DNA of 64,000 nucleotides, from the UHGV virus genome UHGV-1363143; one strand, 5' to 3'. Position 1 is the stretch's first letter; the number at the start of each line of letters is the position of its first letter. This DNA is from a virus. The notes below the pieces were generated by a model that was not told the origin of the DNA, did no database searches, and saw nothing but the letters and a program-made list of their open reading frames with translations. Shown piece by piece: positions 3,793 to 40,869 of this stretch. A program made the position numbers and the translations under genes.

Positions 3793-5032
3793 ATCTATAC
3801 ATATATTGCTTGTCTATTTCTGTAACAAATCTCGACTCTTGAGTCCTGATATAGCTTCCTTGCTTAAGCGTATAAATAGGCCTTGTAATAAAAAGGAGTT
3901 TTTTTGCTCGTGTAACGGCAACATACATTAACCTTCGTTCTTCTTCGTAATCTGCCTCTGTAGTTGCTCTATATGAAGGTATTACTCCCTCATTTGATCC
4001 TGCAATAATAACAATATTCCATTCCAATCCTTTACTGCTATGCATAGTTAATAACTGTACGCAGTTCTCTTCATCCTGATTTTGTTCTGCAATAGTGCTA
4101 TCTAAATTTATATTGTCGGATAATTCTTCCATACTTTCAAAGTGAGTGGCTAATTCTATTAGCTCTTGAATATTTTCTATTCTATCGTCAGCAATGTTTT
4201 TCTTTTCACTCTCTCTGATATAAGGAATATAACCTGTTATTCTTAGCATAGTCTCTATTGCAATGTCTGGAGTGTTAGTCTCCATTTCTACAGATAGTTC
4301 CCCTACTATATCAAGAAAATCTTTAGCACTTGACTTTGCTTTTCCTGTTAAATTTATTTGCTCTAATGCTTCAATTAAATTACATGAATTTGTTTTTGCA
4401 AAGTCAATTATTTTCTCGACTGTTTTGTCTCCTAGTCCTCTTTTTGGTGTGTTTATTGCTCTTGAGAAAGCAATTGTATCATTAGGGTTTATTATTAACC
4501 TAAAATAAGAAATTATATCTTTAATTTCTTTTCTACTATAAAAGTTGGTTCCTCCTACAATTTTATAAGGAATTCTATATTTAAGAAGAGCATCTTCTAT
4601 TTGTCTAGATAGATAGTTCATTCTATATAAAATAGCTATATCACTGTACTTGTAACCATATTTTTTAACTGATAATTCAATTAATTTAACTATTCTTGCT
4701 GATTCTGCCATAGGATCTTTTTCAGGAAAAAATATAATTGGATTACCTTTTTCATTATTAGATCTTAAGCTTTTTTCTACTAGCTGTTTATTATTACTTA
4801 TTAAACTTTTAGAAGCGTCAACTATCATTGAAGTACTTCTATAATTAGTATTTAATAGATGTACTCTCATGCCAGTAAATATGTTTCTCATATTCATTAC
4901 AGCTTCTATCTTAGCACCTCTAAAAGCATAAATGCTCTGGTCATTATCAGCAATCATACAAATATTTTGGTTTTCTCCTGTAAGAAGATATATTAATCTT
5001 AAATCCATTACAGAAGAATCATGACTCTCATC
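3782..5032 (-). CDS. UvrD/PcrA-family helicase, exon 2 (motif II D-E onward, motifs III-VI)
   Basis: DESHDSSVMDLRLIYLLTGENQNICMIADNDQSIYAFRGA aligns with UvrD DEFQDTN...GDDDQSIYGWRGA, and NTNYRST is also present. Reading frame is continuous with exon 1 after removal of 5033..5613. Confidence 0.75.
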   Translation of the reverse strand, partial: DESHDSSVMDLRLIYLLTGENQNICMIADNDQSIYAFRGAKIEAVMNMRNIFTGMRVHLLNTNYRSTSMIVDASKSLISNNKQLVEKSLRSNNEKGNPIIFFPEKDPMAESARIVKLIELSVKKYGYKYSDIAILYRMNYLSRQIEDALLKYRIPYKIVGGTNFYSRKEIKDIISYFRLIINPNDTIAFSRAINTPKRGLGDKTVEKIIDFAKTNSCNLIEALEQINLTGKAKSSAKDFLDIVGELSVEMETNTPDIAIETMLRITGYIPYIRESEKKNIADDRIENIQELIELATHFESMEELSDNINLDSTIAEQNQDEENCVQLLTMHSSKGLEWNIVIIAGSNEGVIPSYRATTEADYEEERRLMYVAVTRAKKLLFITRPIYTLKQGSYIRTQESRFVTEIDKQYMYRYAE

Positions 5033-5613
5033 CTTTTTTGTAAATCTAATTAATAATATAATGTTTCATCTTTTTAGAATAATCTCCTTTCAACACGAAC
5101 TTACGTTCTTATCATATTTTAGCATATTTCCAATATATACTCAATAATAAATACATTTAACAAAAGTATTTATTATTCACAAAAAAAGCGTAACATTAAC
5201 AATAATATTAGATTTTTCTTACTTTCGCAAGTGTGGACTATATCATCATCTCATAATTACTAATTTTAGCCCTATTGCTAGTTCTAGTTTTATGAGAATG
5301 CCTCTTGTTTCACGCAGAGTTACCTTTCGGCACTTTGCTAGTCTCTGAACCTTCTTCCACCCTGGCATATAATTATATGTTACATTGGAAGCTTGGCTGC
5401 TGATTCCCCATTATTAAGGTCCTTAGCACCATCATATTTAATGATAGCTTTTATTTCAGCTTAGACTATCCTTAGTTATTTTTTCTGCCTTTCGGCGACA
5501 TTCACGCTTGTCCTTACGGACTACGTTGTAGTTAACTTAGGCTTTAGGGATTGTTCCAGCAATTAAAGAGGTACGCACACTACGTCACCGTAATATGGGC
5601 CGATGAGTTCAGC
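5033..5613 (-). mobile_element. ORF-less group I self-splicing intron (581 nt) interrupting the UvrD-like helicase gene
   Basis: The 5' exon ends in U and the intron ends in G. On the minus-strand RNA I can read a P element UUAAUUGCUGGAA, a Q element GGGAAUCAGCAGCC, P7 GUUCAGAGACUAGCA and P7' GAUAUAGUCC. GC content is raised relative to flanks, and an in-frame stop falls shortly after the 5' splice site. Confidence 0.75.
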
Positions 5614-6520: not shown

Positions 6521-7243
6521 CTAGTTTTCAATATCTTTTAATATTGCCTCAACAGTTTCTTTTGCTATTGACGCAAGATTGATATCATAAGAAATAGTAT
6601 TAAAATAATCATCATCATTTAATACATTTCTATTTGGATATCTTTTTAAAACAAGTTTATTCTCTCCAATATTGTTTTCTATTTCTTCTAGTAAAATTAT
6701 TGGAGCATTATCTAGCTTCACTACTACTCCATTTGGAAAATTATCATCATTTCTTTTGAAAGTTAATTCTCCTACTATAGTATTAATTACTAATTCTTTT
6801 ACCTCTGCCATATTTTCAATATAATTTTCAAGATCTGTTTTAAATTTTTGCAACTGTTTTGTTCTATCTTCTGTATTTAGTTGCAAAAACATTAATAGGC
6901 TATCAAAATCATATTTATCAATATAACTCATAGTATTGCTCATAATATTGTATGGCAATATTATCATTTTCACATTATCATAACCATCTTCTTTGTTTTT
7001 CGATTTAATTGCATCCTCTATATTATTTGTATATAAGAATTTAGATAAATCACTATATTTATCATAATATATTAGTGCAGTTGCTTTTGGTAACTCATCT
7101 GATTTATTAACTAATTGTTTAACTATAAATTCAATACTATCGTTTAAATATACTGACAGAGTATGAACGTTATTAATTTTTTGTTTAAGTATAGTAACTG
7201 TTCCTATATCTGTATATAATTTCATCTCGATTTTATCTATCAT
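6521..7243 (-). CDS. hypothetical protein
   Basis: 240-aa ORF. Confidence 0.5.
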   Translation of the reverse strand: MIDKIEMKLYTDIGTVTILKQKINNVHTLSVYLNDSIEFIVKQLVNKSDELPKATALIYYDKYSDLSKFLYTNNIEDAIKSKNKEDGYDNVKMIILPYNIMSNTMSYIDKYDFDSLLMFLQLNTEDRTKQLQKFKTDLENYIENMAEVKELVINTIVGELTFKRNDDNFPNGVVVKLDNAPIILLEEIENNIGENKLVLKRYPNRNVLNDDDYFNTISYDINLASIAKETVEAILKDIEN

Positions 7244-7296
7244 GTATTCGCTCCCCCAATATCTTTAAGGTTATCACTTCAGTCTTTTAAATTATA

Positions 7297-7707
7297 TTAT
7301 ACTACATAACGACTTGCTTGTATAACAATTTCCTTTGTCTTACTATCTATGGATATATCTTCCTTGTTTATTGTCCATCCTTGTTTTTCACATTGAAAAA
7401 TTACATCATGCTTTTTATAAGCTTGTGATAATCTATCTATAAAAGTCTTTTCATCTATTCCTGTACAGAAGAAATCACCAGCTACTTCTAGGTTAGTGTT
7501 TTTTCCTTCTTTTATGAATTTTATTCCTATTGATAATGGCTTCCCATCTCTAACGAATCCAGCGTCAACTTTTTCTGTTATCCAAGTATTTTGAATTAAC
7601 TTAATATCATGGTCTATAGTTAATCCTAAATCTTTTGCTGCTCTTGATAATAATGTTTTTTTACAGTTTACTAATACTTTTGAATTATAAGTTGTTAAAT
7701 GTGACAT
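7297..7707 (-). CDS. hypothetical protein
   Basis: 136-aa ORF. Confidence 0.45.
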   Translation of the reverse strand: MSHLTTYNSKVLVNCKKTLLSRAAKDLGLTIDHDIKLIQNTWITEKVDAGFVRDGKPLSIGIKFIKEGKNTNLEVAGDFFCTGIDEKTFIDRLSQAYKKHDVIFQCEKQGWTINKEDISIDSKTKEIVIQASRYVV

Positions 7708-8033
7708 TGAGATCTCTCCTTTTGTTTTAAAAAATATTTATATTTCTTCCCATTTAGGGATACATACATATTATTATGACTTGTTTTACTTAAGTGAAGT
7801 TTTAAAGCTGGTATATAATGTTTAGCAGCAAATACTTCTCTTAAACCATTTTTCGAATTATAGAATATTGGCATATATTCTATTTGATTACTTTCTAAAT
7901 AATCTAAAATTATTACTTTTGTTAATGTGCTATGAGGTTTCCCATTCATACTATATAATCCAAATGCTTCAGCTATTTCTTTTGGATATAACATATGCTC
8001 TTCAGTTTTTATTTCTAAATAAAACTTATACAT
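7695..8033 (-). CDS. hypothetical protein
   Basis: 112-aa ORF. Confidence 0.45.
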   Translation of the reverse strand: MYKFYLEIKTEEHMLYPKEIAEAFGLYSMNGKPHSTLTKVIILDYLESNQIEYMPIFYNSKNGLREVFAAKHYIPALKLHLSKTSHNNMYVSLNGKKYKYFLKQKERSQCHI

Positions 8034-8410
8034 TAGAATGGATCATCTTTTTGATTAGATATATATTTATTGATTAAATCTTTATACATATCTTCTCTCA
8101 TAGCTAAATAATCTTGTTCAGAAATAAATGGTGGTCTATTTCCTTCAAAAATAGGTTTTACTAATGATTCTAATATTTCTTTTACAAGAAAAAATCTTAC
8201 TTGTTCTCCCATAACATCATTAAATATTTTTTTAAATGCAGCTAAACTCGATACCTTTTTCACAAATTCATTTGCAAGATTTTCATATTCTTTGATTTCT
8301 TTATATCCATTTGCTTGTACTATTTTTAACTTATTTAATGCTTCTGGATTATCAGCATTAGCTACTGGCTCTGTTTTTTTTAAGCTTATGTTAATAACAT
8401 TTGATGACAT
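8033..8410 (-). CDS. hypothetical protein
   Basis: 125-aa ORF. Confidence 0.45.
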   Translation of the reverse strand: MSSNVINISLKKTEPVANADNPEALNKLKIVQANGYKEIKEYENLANEFVKKVSSLAAFKKIFNDVMGEQVRFFLVKEILESLVKPIFEGNRPPFISEQDYLAMREDMYKDLINKYISNQKDDPF

Positions 8411-8420
8411 ACATTACCTC

Positions 8421-10079
8421 CTAACCTCTTTTTAAATCATCTATTGAAAGAATTCTTGATATTTCTTTATTATTGTTAATATTACAACCATATTCATTGA
8501 TTAATTGATTACTAAATCTAGCTCTACTTTTTGCATATTCATTTAGTGCTGCAATTTTTTCTCTAGATGATTTGGCTACAGGAATAACTTCAACACAAGC
8601 TTTTTGAATATCTTCTTGTGTAATTTCTTTATTGCCATCTTTTCTGTATCTAGAAAAAGCTTTCTTTAATGTATTCTTAACAGCTTCTTTGATTTCTGCT
8701 CCAGTAAAATCATTTGTTATGTCAGCAGCATAAGTTAATAAAGAATCGTCTAAACTTTTTCCTAACTTATTAAAATGTATATTAAATATATCTTTTCTTT
8801 CATCCTTTTCAGGTAATCCAAAATACCATATAGCATCTAATCTACCAGCTCTAGTAAGTTCAGGTGGTAATTGTGACACATCATTTGATGTCATAACCAC
8901 AAATACTCCATGATCTTCTGCTAAGAATTCTAATATAGCTCCTATTGATCTTGCCATAGTACCTGCATCACTTGAACCACTTGATTGCATACCTGATAAA
9001 GTTTTTTCTACTTCGTCAATCAATAATACACATGGAGCTGTAGCCTTTATCATTCTAATAGCTTGAGCCATATTTTTTTCTGAACTACCCACTTTTGAAT
9101 CTAAAATTTTTGACATATCTAATTTTAAAAATGGAAGGCTCATTGATGTAGCTAAAGCTTCAGCTAATAAAGTTTTTGCAGATCCTGGTACACCTAATGC
9201 TAAATATCCTTTTGGTTTTACACACCCAAATTCCATTGCCTCTGGTGTCATAGCATCCATTACTTCATCAATCCAAGATTTAAAACCAGCATTTCCTCCA
9301 ATTTCATCAAGACTTGAATTTGGGATTTTATAATCTAGCACATTTGATTTTTTTACCAGCTCTATCTTATAATTGCTAATTTCATCTACAGAGATTGTTT
9401 TATTTTTAACCAATGATATTCTAAAACTACACGCTATTTCTTCCAATGTCAATCCTTTACAGGAATTTATTATCAATTCTTTATCCTCTTCACTGACTGG
9501 AATGAAGCCTGGTGTTCGTTGACCTGCCATTAAAGCTGCATTAAGAATGTTCCTAATTAAATTTTCGTCAGGTGTATTATAATCAACTACTGAGAAGATT
9601 TTTTCATGTTCTATTGGTATCTCTGTTACTGGAGAAATTATAATAATTGTATTATAGTTTAGGTACTTTCCTTCAACTATATCTCTAAGCATTCTTTTTA
9701 TATTTGGATTATCTATCATAAGATGAAAGTCTTTTAATATGAAGATATTATTTTTATCTTCAATTACAGTTTGTCCATCCTCTTTCATCATTTCAATAGT
9801 TTCATCATCCATTTCTATACCTCTAGTAATGTCGTATATAGTTTTTAATAATTTATCGACACCAATAGAAGGATCTAGTTTATTTTCTCTATTTGAAGTT
9901 AATTCTACCTTCTTTATACCAGTAGCAAATGAATGAACATATATTGGCATAGGTATTCTTAAAGCTGTAGAAACTTCTTTTATGTCATTAATAACTGCTT
10001 CTTCTTCATATGTATTTATCCAAATACATTTTGCCTTAGCGTTTATTAAATTTAAAACTTCGTTCATACACTCTCTCAT
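8421..10079 (-). CDS. AAA+ family ATPase with large N-terminal domain
   Basis: Walker A GVPGSAKT, Walker B LLIDEVEK, sensor region MTSNDVSQLPPELTRAGRLD. Confidence 0.7.
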   Translation of the reverse strand: MRECMNEVLNLINAKAKCIWINTYEEEAVINDIKEVSTALRIPMPIYVHSFATGIKKVELTSNRENKLDPSIGVDKLLKTIYDITRGIEMDDETIEMMKEDGQTVIEDKNNIFILKDFHLMIDNPNIKRMLRDIVEGKYLNYNTIIIISPVTEIPIEHEKIFSVVDYNTPDENLIRNILNAALMAGQRTPGFIPVSEEDKELIINSCKGLTLEEIACSFRISLVKNKTISVDEISNYKIELVKKSNVLDYKIPNSSLDEIGGNAGFKSWIDEVMDAMTPEAMEFGCVKPKGYLALGVPGSAKTLLAEALATSMSLPFLKLDMSKILDSKVGSSEKNMAQAIRMIKATAPCVLLIDEVEKTLSGMQSSGSSDAGTMARSIGAILEFLAEDHGVFVVMTSNDVSQLPPELTRAGRLDAIWYFGLPEKDERKDIFNIHFNKLGKSLDDSLLTYAADITNDFTGAEIKEAVKNTLKKAFSRYRKDGNKEITQEDIQKACVEVIPVAKSSREKIAALNEYAKSRARFSNQLINEYGCNINNNKEISRILSIDDLKRG

Positions 10080-11896: not shown

Positions 11897-11947
11897 TGAA
11901 ACTACCTCTTTTCTCTAAATCTTGATAGCAAAAATAGGGAGGAGCTA

Positions 11948-12703
11948 TTAAGCTCCTTGTGCTTGCTCTTGAGCAGAAACTAACCCTTTTAAGTAATTTA
12001 CAAACTCTGAAATGTTTTCAGGCATTAAATAGTTTGTTGTTGGTAAAGCACCATTTGAGAAAGTATTTATATAATTATCCATATCTGCTTCAACTAATCC
12101 ATATTTCTTTTTGAACTCATCTAAATAAGCAAAATCTTCTTTATGTTCATCTAATGCTTCTTCAGTCCATGGATCTTCATAATTCATTAAATTAAAGAAA
12201 TAAGCTTCATTTTCATCTCTGTATAATTCTAAGCCTATACCAAACATAGTAGCAGCTTTTTTAAGAGCATCAGTATTGGCACCTTTAAAGATATTTTCTT
12301 GCTCAGATTGTCCTCCAACTAAACATTGTGCTCCAGGAGCTGTTTTTGAAATTTGATAAAAGCGTCCAGAATCATCTTGTAGATGAACTGTTAATCTACC
12401 TATTACATGAGCAACTGGTTGTTGTGGTTCATATTCAGGTGAATCAAGATTTACTTTCTTTCCATTTACGTACTTTACTTTTATCATCTTAGGCTCACTT
12501 TGTTGGATAAATCTTTCGATTATATCCCATGACCATCCTGTATACCCAAAAGTAGCGTTTAATTTATCAATAACTGCTTGTCCACTTACATATGTTAAGC
12601 TAGTTTTTCCCGCAGGCTTTTGTTTGTGGATATACTCTGGTAATGGAGTTGCAAGAGCTACTTTTAATTCTTTAGGTGTGTTTATTACTTGTAATTCTGA
12701 CAT
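11948..12703 (-). CDS. Rad52/Sak-like single-strand annealing protein (candidate)
   Basis: TDALKKAATMFGIGLELY resembles the Rad52-family TDALKRAxxxFG motif. Confidence 0.5.
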   Translation of the reverse strand: MSELQVINTPKELKVALATPLPEYIHKQKPAGKTSLTYVSGQAVIDKLNATFGYTGWSWDIIERFIQQSEPKMIKVKYVNGKKVNLDSPEYEPQQPVAHVIGRLTVHLQDDSGRFYQISKTAPGAQCLVGGQSEQENIFKGANTDALKKAATMFGIGLELYRDENEAYFFNLMNYEDPWTEEALDEHKEDFAYLDEFKKKYGLVEADMDNYINTFSNGALPTTNYLMPENISEFVNYLKGLVSAQEQAQGA

Positions 12704-35371: not shown

Positions 35372-35880
35372 ACGAAGATATCCTGTTATGCTTTAATTTG
35401 CTTATAGTTTAAAATTAATTATTCTTTATTTCTCTTTGAGTAATTCTTTTAATTCTTGACCTAGATATCTTATGTAACATTCTTTTATCTTTTGATCTGA
35501 GCTTTGTATTTTGAACTACTATCTTTTCATAAAAATCTAAAGCAGTTGCTTCTTTCGAATTATTCTGTTTAAATAAATCCATAATGCTATCAATCCTTTC
35601 TTTATTCAGAAATTAATTTTGCATTTACATATTTATTATCTAACTTTTTCGTCATTTACCTCATAAATATAGTTAAACTTCTTTTACAAATATTTTTCCA
35701 TTGGGAGCAGTATAAAATATATCTCTTTTAAATGACATAAGATAAGAAACTCCTGGAATAACTAATACATTCATATCTGTAATAATAGTATTTAATTCAA
35801 AAGTTGCAATCACTTCTCTTGTATCTTTTTTAAAAATAACTAAAATTTGCATTATTCAACCTCAATTTATAATTATTCTC

Positions 35881-35909
35881 TTTTATATAAAAAACCCAGG
35901 GCCTTTCGG
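35881..35909 (-). terminator. rho-independent terminator closing the tRNA array (CCCAGG...CCUGGG then UUUU)
   Basis: GC-rich 6-bp stem immediately 3' of tRNA-Asn on the minus strand, followed by U4. Confidence 0.6.
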
Positions 35910-35915
35910 ACACCT

Positions 35916-35990
<75 letters not shown>

Positions 35991-36785
35991 CTGTAGTTCC
36001 ATAATTCCAGCGTCCGTATGGACCTGGAGATCTCCTTCTATCTTAGATAGATGAGCTAATGTAAGCACCACATTTTATAATCCCTTGCATGGATTGGGCA
36101 GGCACCATTATTTTTACATGCATGGTTGCATTGACCTAGCTTACTTTTTGTTCTTTCGGTCTTATTGATTATTACTATCCCACTCGTGAATAGCATATTT
36201 GTTTGAAACAATCGCCTGCACAATGCAAGCCCCAGAAAGAGTTTATCTTTCAAAATTAATGCAAGGTGGGGTGGCGTATCCCACATCTCTAACCATAACA
36301 ATATATGTAGTATAGACTGCCTGTTTCTACTTCTTGCATTTTTATATCTAATTGCTTACTTGAAAAACACGAGCTAATTACATTAGCTACTAAAACTCAT
36401 AAGCATAAATATACCTTCTTATAAGAGTTCCTAATCTATGTCTAAATAAGAAGTATATTAGTTTCATAAGGATATAGATTAGGTTTCACCTTACTTTTTA
36501 TTATTGCTTGAAAAAACCCTAAAAATTACTAAGCAATATATATATTCTTCTCACTTCCGAAACCAGCACTCCATGTCCTTCGAATATATAGTTTTTTTGT
36601 TTCGCTGATCTGGTCCTCTATGCAAAACTTTAAAGGGAAATTTGCTTACCGCCACAGTTCCTTCCTGCTCGTCCATAAGCTATTAAGTAGATAAATTACT
36701 CCTACTTAACTAGTGCGTCTCCAGTGAGCATAGTAAATCAGGCCAATCAAATCAGCTAAATACCAGAGGCTTGAGAGGTTCTATT
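35991..36785 (-). ncRNA. ~0.8-kb ORF-free, GC-enriched structured spacer between tRNA-Asn and tRNA-Thr; candidate large ncRNA (GOLLD/ROOL-like class hypothesis)
   Basis: No credible ORF. The only track ORF, 36056..36301, is Cys/His-poor and has no RBS. GC content is well above that of the coding background. The block is embedded in a co-directional tRNA array. Confidence 0.3.
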
Positions 36786-36859
36786 TGGAGCTCCTACTCA
36801 GAATCGAACTGAGAACAGAAGATTACAAGTCTACCGTTTTACCTTTAAACTATAGGAGC
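36786..36859 (-). tRNA. tRNA-Thr (UGU)
   Basis: Acceptor GCUCCUA/UAGGAGC, T-arm CUCAG-UUCGAUU-CUGAG, anticodon loop CUUGUAA. There is one U-U mismatch in the anticodon stem. CCA encoded. Confidence 0.6.
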
Positions 36860-37015
36860 ATATAATACTTTCGGTGTGCTACAGAAATCTAAGTTTCTGT
36901 TAATAGGCAAGGCTGTCTATATCAGGTATTCAGTAATTATGTACACTTTTAACTGAACCATACTATATATCCCTACACGCTACTCTTAACTATAAGAACA
37001 CCGAAAATATTATAA

Positions 37016-37090
37016 TGGTACTCCATGGGGGACTCGAACCCCCGATACACGATAGAAAGTCGTGTGGCTTAACCACTTGCCGAATGGAGC
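37016..37090 (-). tRNA. tRNA-Glu (UUC), tentative
   Basis: Acceptor GCUCCAU/AUGGAGU, T-arm GGGGG-UUCGAGU-CCCCC, perfect anticodon stem CACGA/UCGUG, loop CUUUCUA. Position 37 is an unusual U. CCA encoded. Confidence 0.55.
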
Positions 37091-37169
37091 ATAATTTGTG
37101 CTATCTCTTTTAGCTTGTACTTCGCCAAGGATGATAGCTATCCTTATCTGTACAAATTACAGATTTCTC

Positions 37170-37240
37170 TGGTGCAGATTGCTGGAATCGAACCAACCCT
37201 TATAATCTTATAGAAAACGCTCTACCTTGAGCTAATCTGC
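37170..37240 (-). tRNA. tRNA-like gene with intact acceptor, D- and T-arms but no foldable canonical anticodon arm
   Basis: Acceptor GCAGAUU/AAUCUGC plus ACCA, D-arm GCUC-AAGGUA-GAGC, T-arm GUUGG-UUCGAUU-CCAGC. The anticodon region UUUUCUAUAAGAUUAUAAGG contains a UAUAAG duplication, and no 5-bp stem with a 7-nt loop can be formed. Confidence 0.4.
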
Positions 37241-38269
37241 ATATTATATTTCCAGAGCTTTCAGATCCTATCTCTGGTACTCAACTTTTGCAGCATTATT
37301 GATTCTCTGCTTATCCACATTCTCTTGAATGTATTGAGTTATGCCTGCCTTGTTTAATGAGTGGCTTATCTCATCTAATAGTACACTACTCTACACCATT
37401 GATTATATCAACCTTGCGGGCTGTTCAGGCTGCTACCCCTTATACGCTCTCCGATATAGAACAATCAAGCTTTTGCGAAGCTATCATGCGCTTCATTCAC
37501 TTTTCAGTGTGAAGCATTAAGACACTTTCATGCACTACGAGGATGAACTTTCGCTTTTATATAGAATTAATATCTGTAAATTCTTAAATATTGTTTTATT
37601 TCCCAAAACATATAGCTTAAATTCATCATTCATTAAATTTTCAAACTGTAGATGTGTCATCCTATCAGCTCGCTTCCCTTTTGAGGAAGTAAATACTGGA
37701 CACCTACATAGCTTTCACTCAACTAAGTTACTAACTGGTAATAAATCATACTCTAGGATACCTCCGTCTCTCAACTTCTAAGGTCCTATTTCATTTTTAT
37801 TACTGGCCAATGCTCTTGCCTGTTAAACTCGAACTACTAACCTTCTGCTATAAATAGTTTATTTCATTAGTTTTGGTGTGTGCTATCTGATTACCAGTCA
37901 GAAACTCCTTCAGAGAGTATATCCCCTACTTTCTTACCAGCGTTGCCCATAAGCGAGCTTTCGCACCTAACTTATAAAACCTTATCCAATAATCGTCTTT
38001 ATCTCTTCCGCCTACTGAATAACATTTAAATTTATGCAGATTGCTTGAATTAACCTAATATTTCAAGGCGAGAATTTGTTAAATTCCCTTTACGCACATC
38101 ACTGTACGCTATTCATGTCAAGCCATGTTTACTTATTTTTTTTATAGAACCTAGTACAGATTCTTGTATGTAATTCCTACCTCTATTACATACTAGGCTC
38201 TTGCCTACCGATGTTTTCCTTATTTAAAACTAAGTACTGAAAAGAAAACTCATAACCAAAAATCGTACT
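37241..38269 (-). ncRNA. ~1.0-kb ORF-free GC-enriched structured spacer between tRNA-like gene and tRNA-Lys; candidate large ncRNA(s)
   Basis: Only a weak 83-aa plus-strand ORF with no RBS falls here. Composition matches the other large spacer and lies within the tRNA operon. Confidence 0.3.
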
Positions 38270-38345
38270 TGGTGAAGGTAGAAGGGTTTGAACCTTCGGC
38301 CCCAGCATTAAAAGTGCTATGCTCTACCAACTGAGCTATACCTTC
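38270..38345 (-). tRNA. tRNA-Lys (UUU)
   Basis: GAAGGUAUAGCUCAGUUGGUAGAGC..., anticodon loop CUUUUAA, T-loop UUCAAAC, CCA encoded. Confidence 0.9.
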
Positions 38346-38352
38346 ATATTAT

Positions 38353-38429
38353 TGGTAGTGGATATAAGAGTCGAACTTATCACCTTCTGCGTATCAGGCA
38401 GATGCTCTAACCAAATGAGCTAATCCACT
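38353..38429 (-). tRNA. tRNA-Ile (GAU)
   Basis: AGUGGAUUAGCUCAUUUGGUUAGAGC..., anticodon loop CUGAUAC, CCA encoded. Confidence 0.9.
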
Positions 38430-38435
38430 ATATTA

Positions 38436-38520
38436 TGGTGGGAACTGATGGAGTCGAACCACCCGAGCTAAAGCAACAGATTTACAGTCTGCCCCGCTAC
38501 CATCTACGGTATAAATTCCC
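38436..38520 (-). tRNA. tRNA-Tyr (GUA), type II with long variable arm
   Basis: Acceptor GGGAAUU/AGUUCCC, anticodon loop CUGUAAA, long variable arm, T-loop UUCGACU, CCA encoded. Confidence 0.8.
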
Positions 38521-38547
38521 GTATTGACATTGTTAATTGGCTAAATT

Positions 38548-38577
38548 ATTATAATTGTAAATGTACTATACTTACAA
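38548..38577 (-). promoter_or_regulatory. candidate sigma-A-type promoter (TTGTAA, 18-nt spacer, TATAAT) reading into tRNA-Tyr/Ile/Lys
   Basis: Minus strand -35 TTGTAA (plus 38572-38577) and -10 TATAAT (plus 38548-38553), located 30-60 nt upstream of tRNA-Tyr. Confidence 0.35.
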
Positions 38578-38614
38578 AGAACTAGATCAATCTTCGGATT
38601 GGTCTTTTTCTTAT

Positions 38615-38701
38615 TGGCAGGGGCTGTAGGATTCGAACCTACGTGGTGTTGTGCACAATGGTTTTGGAGACCACCGCCCTCGACCTCTAGGCAAAACCCC
38701 T
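38615..38701 (-). tRNA. atypical 87-nt tRNA: type II (long variable arm) architecture but anticodon CCA (Trp reading)
   Basis: Acceptor AGGGGUU/AGCCCCU plus G plus CCA, T-arm GUAGG-UUCGAAU-CCUAC, anticodon stem GUGGU/ACCAU with loop CUCCAAA. A 15-nt extra arm (UGUGCACAACACCAC) follows. Alternatively GUGGU pairs with the distal ACCAC. Confidence 0.45.
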
Positions 38702-38836
38702 GTAAATCTCCCGATTAGTTTAAAGACATTTATGGGACTGGTCATTAGAGAGGTCTTATGTATAAATTAAAACGTTATGCATAAATATATTATGTTAACA
38801 TCTATAAAAAGACTACTGATTTGAAAAACTTTTTTA

Positions 38837-38923
38837 TGGCGGAGAGTCTGGGACTCGAACCCAGAAGCCATTACTGACCAACAGTTTTCAAGACTGTCTG
38901 ACTACCAATTATCACAACTCTCC
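38837..38923 (-). tRNA. tRNA-Ser (UGA), type II
   Basis: Acceptor GGAGAGU/ACUCUCC plus G plus CCA, anticodon arm ACAGU-CUUGAAA-ACUGU, long variable arm, T-loop UUCGAGU. Confidence 0.85.
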
Positions 38924-39021
38924 ATGTTTATAGGAGAAAACGAAATAGGTGATAGGAATTGAACCTACACTTACTGCCATCCCTATCTCTAGCTGGCCTT
39001 GCTTCATTCTCCTGTTGCAAC

Positions 39022-39096
39022 TGGCGGAGGTGGAAGGGATTGAACCTTCGAATGATGGAATCAAAATCCATTGCCTTACCACTTGGCGACACCTCT
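39022..39096 (-). tRNA. tRNA-Gln (UUG)
   Basis: AGAGGUGUCGCCAAGUGGUAAGGC, closely matching the bacterial tRNA-Gln D-arm. Anticodon loop UUUUGAU, T-loop UUCAAUC, A1-C72 mismatch, CCA encoded. Confidence 0.8.
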
Positions 39097-39297
39097 ATAT
39101 AAAATGGCAATTTTACCGTTTGCCAAACGTTCTATGGTTTATACAAAAACTCATATCGTAAAATTTAAACGGGCTTAAGTGCCCTAAATTCTGGCATTTC
39201 ACCACGGGTATTTAGCAACCCAGGATTTTTATTATTGAATCTAATAAATTAAGATCCGTTCTAAGCACTGCAAAAAAATCTTAAAAAAATTTCGCTT

Positions 39298-39373
39298 TGG
39301 TCGGAGTTACAGGACTCGAACCTGTGATCTCATGGTCCCAAACCATGCACCTTACCATCTAGGCCAAACTCCG
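39298..39373 (-). tRNA. tRNA-Pro (UGG)
   Basis: CGGAGUUUGGCCUAGAUGGUAAGG..., anticodon loop UUUGGGA, T-loop UUCGAGU, CCA encoded. Confidence 0.9.
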
Positions 39374-39382
39374 ATATATAAA

Positions 39383-39474
39383 TGGCGGAGGACACAGGAT
39401 TCGAACCTGCGGAGGAACTTTCGTCCCTCGAATGCTTAGCAAGCACCTGCCTTAAACCTCTCGGCCAATCCTCC
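39383..39474 (-). tRNA. tRNA-Ser (GCU), type II
   Basis: Acceptor GGAGGAU/GUCCUCC plus G plus CCA, anticodon loop UUGCUAA, long variable arm CGAGGGACGAAAGUUCCUCCG, T-loop UUCGAAU. Confidence 0.85.
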
Positions 39475-39564
39475 ATATTAATAGCTCATTTTGGTCAGTT
39501 GAGCTAAACTGTAGTCTATAAGACTAAAAAATGAACATTGGAATTTAATATTGAATTGAATTAG

Positions 39565-39641
39565 TGGCGACTCACAAGGGGATCGAACCCTCGACCTCTG
39601 GCGTGACAGGCCAGCACTCTAACCATCTGAGCTAGTGAGCC
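39565..39641 (-). tRNA. tRNA-Asp (GUC)
   Basis: GGCUCACUAGCUCAGAUGGUUAGAG..., anticodon loop CUGUCAC, T-loop UUCGAUC, CCA encoded. Confidence 0.9.
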
Positions 39642-39647
39642 ATATTA

Positions 39648-39736
39648 TGGTGTCGTGAGAAGGATTCGAACCTCCAACCACCTGAGTCTTGTTAATGGAG
39701 CTCCCTCAGTGCGTATACCAATTCCGCCACCACGAC
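39648..39736 (-). tRNA. tRNA-like gene with 18-nt anticodon loop (11-nt insertion); anticodon undetermined
   Basis: Acceptor GUCGUGG/UCACGAC plus A plus CCA, D-arm GCG-GAAUUGGUAUA-CGC, T-arm GGAGG-UUCGAAU-CCUUC. A perfect 5-bp stem CUGAG/CUCAG encloses GGAGCUCCAUUAACAAGA. Confidence 0.4.
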
Positions 39737-39860: not shown

Positions 39861-39893
39861 AAAGCTGGGAATTTTTTATCCCAGCCTTATATT
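39861..39893 (-). terminator. rho-independent terminator after the peptidoglycan hydrolase gene (GCUGGGA-loop-UCCCAGC then U-run)
   Basis: 7-bp GC-rich stem, 8-nt loop, then a U8 tract on the minus strand immediately after the stop codon of 39892..40869. Confidence 0.6.
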
Positions 39894-40869
39894 ACAGCTT
39901 TGCTAATAAATCATTAGCTATTGCATTAATGTTTCTTGACCATGTGGTACCTTCGCAATATTTTGTATTTACATTCCATATGCTAGGTCCATTATAATGA
40001 GCTCCTCCTTCAGTAAGGTAAGCAGTATTAATAAGATTAGCTATATAATTTAAGCTCTCTCCCCAATTATCAAATCTTCTCCATGAGTTACCTTTTTTAA
40101 CTCCACCAATATTATTATATGTTCTAGCTAAATAAGATCTTCCATGTCCTGATTCTTCCGAGTTAAGTGCTATTAAGAATATTGCATTTACATTGTATTT
40201 CTTTTCTGCATAATAATATGCTTTTGATAATGATTGTAATGCACTGCCCTCTAACATTTTATGAATTTGAGACTCTGATAAATTACTTAATTCTCTCAAG
40301 TTATAAGGATTATAATGAGGAATTCCATCTACTTGTTTTTGTACTTTTGGTTCCTTATATACTTCATATGGTGGGTTTTCTTGATATTGTTCAACTAATG
40401 ACATATCAATAAAACCTTCTTTGCCATTATAATTAATTTTTAACCAGTTCCATTGTCTTTCAATTATCTCAAAAGTCATACCTTTTCTAAATAAAAGAAT
40501 TACTTCTGAATCATAATTAGGTTCTGTTCTAAAACGAGAATAGTCAGCGATAACTTGTCCATATTTTTGATGTTCAGTTTTTAATCTTTGCTCTTCTTCT
40601 AACCTTTCTTGCTCTAGTCTTTTTTGTTCAACCATTTCTAAATGTTTCTCATAAATGTTTTTGGGACTCATAAAAATAGGATTTGTAAGAGATTGGTCTT
40701 CTATTGATAGCTCTATTGCTGCAGGTTCTAATTTATTATTAATACGCATGTTATTACTTGCAGTATCAAAACAATGTACTGGCAAAAATGTAGATGTATA
40801 TGCATATAAACCAGCTAAGCATTTAGCTAAATGTGTCATAAAAACACTCCTTTCTGATTTCTCCCTCAT
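39892..40869 (-). CDS. peptidoglycan hydrolase (glucosaminidase-domain plus SH3-like; endolysin or virion lysin candidate)
   Basis: C-terminal FLIALNSEESGHGRSYLARTYNNIGGVK resembles the glucosaminidase AxxESGxG motif. A central SH3-like segment GMTFEIIERQWNWLKINYNGKEGFID is present, and the N-terminus is coiled-coil. Confidence 0.6.
   Translation of the reverse strand: MREKSERSVFMTHLAKCLAGLYAYTSTFLPVHCFDTASNNMRINNKLEPAAIELSIEDQSLTNPIFMSPKNIYEKHLEMVEQKRLEQERLEEEQRLKTEHQKYGQVIADYSRFRTEPNYDSEVILLFRKGMTFEIIERQWNWLKINYNGKEGFIDMSLVEQYQENPPYEVYKEPKVQKQVDGIPHYNPYNLRELSNLSESQIHKMLEGSALQSLSKAYYYAEKKYNVNAIFLIALNSEESGHGRSYLARTYNNIGGVKKGNSWRRFDNWGESLNYIANLINTAYLTEGGAHYNGPSIWNVNTKYCEGTTWSRNINAIANDLLAKL

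Follow-up and report, generated by a model that had tools for sequence, protein, structure and literature searches.

GOLLD RNAs (Rfam RF02032; Weinberg et al. 2009) are among the largest and most elaborate non-coding RNAs of bacteria and phages and are builders of nanocages made of RNA only. They are encoded by phages and prophages near tRNA islands, combine a conserved 3' domain with a variable 5' domain, and form cages of 10, 12 or 14 copies (PMC12286853, PMC12990946). Cryo-EM structures are available for the env-38 14-mer (PDB 9MEE) and for the S. agalactiae 12-mer (PDB 9L0R). The cages are dihedral and fold without protein, with the 3' domains as rings, the 5' domains as caps and a linker directed inward (PMC12286853, PMC12990946). 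This linker, located between the first hairpin of the 3' domain and the pseudoknotted core, is disordered in the GOLLD structures and in some cases bears a tRNA. The full-length RNA from S. agalactiae gives a 12-mer, and its 3' domain alone gives mainly 10-mers in vitro (PMC12990946). Expression of GOLLD goes up during phage lysis (PMC12286853, PMC12990946). The leading published proposals for its biological role are that, late in infection, the cage sequesters or scaffolds macromolecules such as tRNAs or ribosomes. The sister class, ROOL RNA (RF03087), is likewise large, ornate and phage-associated and forms RNA-only cages.

We analysed a window of 64,000 nucleotides from the virus genome UHGV-1363143 and, within it, the block at 37241-38269, which lies on the minus strand between a tRNA-Lys and a defective tRNA-like gene. 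An earlier note on this DNA had described the block as non-coding, GC-enriched and structured, and this description was borne out. The GC enrichment is genuine but modest, with values of 0.32-0.39 along the block compared to 0.22-0.30 in the flanking coding sequence. The structure of the block exceeds chance, on the basis of the single-sequence fold of its 561-nt 5' region (z = -3.35) and of a covariance-model match in its 3' part. The two flanking tRNA calls both belong to an array of 14 minus-strand tRNAs at 35926-39736 (ARAGORN, Rfam), and the surrounding genes and tRNAs are all on the minus strand.

The whole window was scanned with the covariance models of Rfam 15, and the region 35800-38700 was scanned again at E <= 1 with permissive filters. 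The 3' part of the block matched the GOLLD model over its entire length, with an E-value of 1.6e-46 in the whole-window scan and 7.4e-48 in the local scan and a score above the gathering score of 150. With a probability of about 95%, we assign the minus-strand element 37252-38128, of about 877 nt, to a full-length GOLLD RNA made of a 420-nt 5' domain and a 457-nt 3' domain, preceded by a leader and followed by a tRNA-like element. The features of the locus are listed in Table 1. The earlier note had considered a ROOL-sized RNA, alone or together with additional elements, and the size and the context would fit, ROOL being also a large phage RNA found near tRNAs (PMC12286853). However, no ROOL match was obtained in 35800-38700 at E <= 1 and, over the whole window, none reached the gathering score, compared to an E-value of about 1e-47 for GOLLD, and ROOL is unrelated to the element in sequence and in secondary structure. 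The probability that the block is a ROOL RNA is practically nil.

Table 1 Features of the GOLLD locus, in the order of transcription (window coordinates).
Feature	Position	Strand	Evidence and remarks
tRNA-Lys(UUU)	38270-38345	-	ARAGORN; Rfam tRNA, 73.5 bits; directly upstream of the GOLLD element
Leader, 141 nt, several hairpins	38129-38269	-	Conserved only in the closest relatives, L136 and L139
GOLLD 5' domain, about 420 nt	37709-38128	-	Conserved in L136, L139, L142 and L147, 69-94% identity
GOLLD conserved 3' domain	37263-37708	-	Rfam RF02032, 171.8 bits, model positions 1-416 of 416
AU-rich variable linker, 88 nt, inside the 3' domain	37559-37646	-	Low-confidence, insert-rich part of the Rfam alignment
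Closing terminal hairpin, 3' strand (CCAGAG...CUCUGG)	37252-37262	-	Lengthens the RNA by 11 nt past the Rfam match
tRNA-like element	37170-37240	-	Rfam tRNA, 34.5 bits; ARAGORN 'Tyr(ata)'; 11 nt after the terminal hairpin

The alignment of the 3' domain contains a first hairpin with a UCAAAAG loop, the AU-rich linker, AAAAGCGAAAGU and GAAAG...UAAUGC, together with the strands of a long-range pseudoknot, CGCAA-type loops, GAGUA and a terminal module GUGGAUAAG...AAUAAU...CAAAAG. The CGCAA-type loops contain GC, are of the kind used in symmetric kissing contacts and hint at self-assembly, which is only suggestive. The linker carries a 38-nt insertion compared to the RF02032 model and shows indels among the sibling phages, and ARAGORN found no tRNA embedded in it. 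It corresponds to the linker of env-38, which is disordered and faces the interior of the cage (PMC12286853).

Could the block code for protein instead? The earlier note had reported an 83-aa plus-strand ORF at 37530-37781 as the only one; this ORF exists and is one of six, of 40-83 aa, that overlap the block, so that small proteins had to be considered. None of the five ORFs tested had a match in Pfam or PHROGs, and the plus-strand ORF would stand among genes and tRNAs that are all on the minus strand. Furthermore, related phages differ here by 1-nt indels and by paired compensatory substitutions with no codon-periodic pattern, and the frame of a minus-strand ORF in the linker is broken by such indels between relatives. 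We regard a coding function of the block as a very remote prospect.

Related loci were then needed for comparison. A blastn search of the block against 50,697 GenBank phage records gave no match, and megablast of the 20 kb around it against GenBank phages matched tRNAs only; judged by these searches, the phage is without a close cultured relative. A subfamily 16-mer scan of IMG/VR returned the contig L001 as sole true relative. Relatives were reached via the protein of the neighbouring glucosaminidase/SH3 lysin gene, 39892-40869(-). L130 and L132, from human-gut metagenome assemblies, are the same phage (lysin 100% identical, GOLLD 171.8 bits). The others are L001 (IMG/VR UViG_3300014583_000001, 241 kb; lysin 83%, GOLLD 162.9 bits), the ENA metagenome contig L136 (82%, 172.2 bits), the Logan assembly contig L139 (77%, 166.8 bits) and two further ENA metagenome contigs, L142 (70%, 139.1 bits, E 3.7e-38, below the cut-off) and L147 (57%, 160.2 bits). 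In all seven, the GOLLD occupies the syntenic site in the tRNA array. L136 and L139 align with the window over the entire block at 93-94% identity, L142 at 76% from 38127 to 37016, and L147 at 69% from 38125 to 37360.

A 28-nt insertion in one hairpin and a longer linker lower the score of the L142 GOLLD (4155-4639) to 139.1 bits, under the gathering score of 150, in spite of 76% identity to the window element over both domains. The Rfam cut-off thus overlooks genuine members with large insertions, and standard annotation would skip this one. In L147, about 800 nt of additional sequence with no called genes (6698-7512) lie between the tRNA array and the GOLLD 5' domain; ARAGORN places a tRNA-Ser there at 7083-7175, and the remainder gave no gathering-level match in Rfam. 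A further contig from a sibling phage, L141 (Logan ERR5773451, lysin 73%), stops 1.7 kb past the lysin gene, and the fetched locus contains neither tRNAs nor a GOLLD. It carries instead, at 7287-8426, a gene for a Zn-dependent phospholipase C that has a PLAT domain and is built like clostridial alpha-toxin.

The RF02032 model represents only the conserved 3' half of GOLLD, which raises the question whether the 5' domain is to be found in the 561 nt that separate tRNA-Lys from the Rfam match. The homology with L142 and L147 begins about 141 nt past tRNA-Lys and is continuous into the Rfam match. An RNAalifold consensus of five sequences over 37709-38135 contained 117 pairs, 29 of them with compensatory double changes, from a sibling set that amounts effectively to three lineages. 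In this consensus, 98.1% of the cells are paired and none of 500 shuffles reached any of the five measures, and slid controls gave 0-5 covarying pairs and 36-43% pairing. The homologous region with compensatory base changes that the earlier note had proposed to look for in related phages is therefore present (29/117 pairs), and its claim of a large structured non-coding RNA, co-directional in the tRNA array and distinct from neutral spacer, holds, the block being conserved with compensatory changes. The two outcomes that it had named as contrary, a block made of tRNA pseudogenes only or one with no conservation, were both not found.

We also searched for this 5' region in more distant GOLLDs. 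A degenerate scan for the 3' motifs in IMG/VR gave 119 loci. Over these, blastn found nothing for the 5' region, its only matches being to the motif region of the 3' domain, and the Stockholm alignment in the supplement of Kretsch et al. comprises 3' domains only. An nhmmer profile of the 5' domain matched 15 of the 119 loci over profile positions 6-408 with E-values of 1e-11 to 3e-5. Each of these matches stops 430-470 nt short of the terminal 3' motif, with a geometry like that of the window element, and all 12 of the loci tested were GOLLDs by Rfam (161-193 bits). With R1, a covariance model of the first 151 nt of this domain (34 pairs), 22 IMG/VR loci were found. In the resulting alignment (A7), 93.7% of the cells pair, and among its 15 distinct sequences 23 of the 34 pairs show double changes compared to 2-9 in slid controls; this alignment is fitted to the model and so biased towards structure, and the margin is large even so. 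Judged from sequence comparison, homology and covariation-supported structure together show here that the region is the GOLLD 5' domain and no unrelated neighbour.

The contig L001 departs from this organization at 11938-12417. Its GOLLD 3' domain is 97% identical to that of the window and the tRNA-like element is also retained, and in place of the canonical 5' domain there is a stretch of about 390 nt that is unstructured (z = +0.74). This replacement carries a 48-aa ORF (12202-12348) with a strong GGAGG ribosome-binding site, which terminates just inside the conserved part. The absence of the 5' domain in L001 echoes the in vitro assembly of the 3' domain alone, which gives decamers for S. 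agalactiae (PMC12990946), and both observations would fit a functional GOLLD unit limited to the conserved 3' domain, with the 5' region as an accessory or as an independent adjacent RNA. However, all the other siblings and at least 22 distant GOLLDs have the 5' domain in line with the 3' domain at a constant spacing, the 5' domain is strongly constrained in structure, and the solved structures show it in the same chain, where it caps the cage (PMC12286853). We consider it unlikely that the 3' domain is the only functional unit, and the full-length, two-domain GOLLD is retained as our reading.

The element shows every GOLLD trait that can be examined by computation, namely a full-model match of the 3' domain, a structured 5' domain directly upstream, a location in a phage tRNA cluster and a variable linker. 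It resembles the known members by the tRNAs on both sides, the phage genome, the AU-rich internal linker and the total length of about 880 nt. Flanking tRNAs were also seen for most of the distant GOLLDs checked, and the downstream tRNA, where called, lies 13-50 nt beyond the 3' end. Compared to typical GOLLDs, four differences were found. The upstream neighbour here is tRNA-Lys followed by a 141-nt structured leader, whereas in the five distant loci with an ARAGORN call (L003, L044, L078, L027 and L063) it is always tRNA-Met(CAT), about 50 nt before the 5' domain. A hairpin of about 25 nt (GGACCUUAGAAGU...GGUAUCC) is added between the 5' and 3' domains and is missing in L142 and L147. Instead of an ordinary tRNA, a tRNA-like element with no anticodon stem lies next to it downstream. 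Finally, the host lineage is probably a gut Clostridium and the phage a jumbo phage.

For the leader, RNAalifold with three sequences gave 41 pairs, of which two, in the hairpin GUAUGUAAU/AUUACAUAC, showed compensatory double changes. The leader is absent or different in L142, L147 and the distant GOLLDs. Decayed tRNA genes, which the earlier note had also proposed, or a neutral spacer left by turnover of the tRNA array could account for the block: the array does turn over among the siblings, where the upstream tRNA is Lys in L136 as in the window, Ile in L139 and Met in L001, a degenerate tRNA-like gene follows the block, and the leader of L142 contains a fragment that, by eye, resembles the 3' half of a tRNA. 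However, no tRNA or tRNA-like match was found inside 37241-38269 (ARAGORN, Rfam at E <= 1), the conservation extends over about 880 nt in phages with lysins of only 57-82% identity, and the changes there are compensatory and not random. For the block, this explanation is highly improbable; it is refuted for the core 37252-38128 and possible for the 141-nt leader only.

At the other end of the GOLLD RNA, the terminal hairpin takes compensatory forms in the relatives, read from the alignments as CCGAAG...CUUCGG in L136, L139 and L001 and as ACGGAG...CUCCGU in L142. In the tRNA-like element, the acceptor, D and T arms and the encoded CCA are conserved in five related phages. The sole variable part consists of 22 nt at the place of the anticodon arm, for which the consensus fold showed no conserved stem. 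Rather than decoding, the element may act as a handle for processing the 3' end of the GOLLD RNA. A comparable arrangement is that of MALAT1 and mascRNA, a eukaryotic lncRNA freed by RNase P cutting at a downstream tRNA-like element. By analogy, the two systems would share a long structured RNA followed by a tRNA-like element with acceptor and T arms and a degenerate anticodon arm. They differ in that the present one is a bacterial phage system in which the cleavage is putative and the tRNA-like element may be a mere decaying tRNA gene. Tentatively, and with more doubt than confidence, one may go further and see in this element a dedicated maturation handle, whose RNase P site sets the GOLLD 3' end; together with L001, the series in this phage group would then indicate that a minimal functional GOLLD consists of the 3' ring domain plus the handle, the 5' cap being dispensable or exchangeable.

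Transcription signals were examined around the array. The promoter proposed by the earlier note at 38548-38577(-), a 10/12 sigma-70-like match, did not stand out, the region containing 13 such matches compared to 15.5 +/- 4.4 in shuffles. A hairpin with a T run follows the lysin gene at 39888-39861. A terminator-like hairpin with a U-run, seen by eye, follows tRNA-Asn at about 35885-35925. The flanking tRNAs and these signals suggest a single tRNA/GOLLD transcription unit. The GOLLD RNA would then be co-transcribed with the tRNAs as part of a tRNA operon, which probably begins past the hairpin of the lysin gene and finishes at the terminator-like hairpin after tRNA-Asn. RNase Z or exonucleases would cut at the 3' end of the upstream tRNA-Lys, which is the likely 5' processing boundary of the element, and RNase P would cut at the 5' boundary of the tRNA-like element downstream, freeing the GOLLD RNA. 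The released RNA would fold and, like the GOLLDs of solved structure, self-assemble into a multimeric cage of RNA only. Both the ends of the transcript and its processing are deduced solely from the order of the genes.

Two other observations concern the array. The tRNA-Trp(CCA) at 38615-38701(-) is 87 nt long, with 10 nt more in the variable loop than the 75-76-nt orthologues of L142 and L147; the window sequence and L136 differ in the anticodon stem by a compensatory change, which suggests that the gene is still functional. A skipping-rope RNA (RF02924) was matched at 36258-36340(-) with 58.2 bits (gathering score 36.7), inside the ORF-free block 35991-36785, and a second one in L142 at 5251-5330 with 60.8 bits. 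No gathering-level match to it was found in L001, L136 and L139, though the block's flanking sequence aligns.

The phage genes of the window include topoisomerase II subunits, a helicase, an endolysin and a peptide deformylase, and the fetched copies of the phage add a gene with an ALP_N (actin-like) domain. Identical or sibling contigs measure 152-241 kb, the longest one with the lysin of the window itself being 238 kb, and the phage is present in human-gut metagenomes. The closest cellular homologue of the lysin, with 64% identity, is the product of a chromosomal autolysin-like gene of Clostridium sp. AL.422. The phage is probably a jumbo phage of about 240 kb infecting Clostridium.

We show here a GOLLD gene with both domains intact, under structural selection and in the typical context of the family. 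A GOLLD in a tRNA array is unsurprising to the specialist, phage tRNA arrays being the usual place of these RNAs. The block can be annotated as an explained feature and is no longer an unknown. The locus adds to the family a well-delimited GOLLD from an uncultivated jumbo phage of the human gut, with four sibling loci and clean covariation in both domains, and L001, in which the 5' domain is absent, constitutes a natural experiment on the need for the cap.
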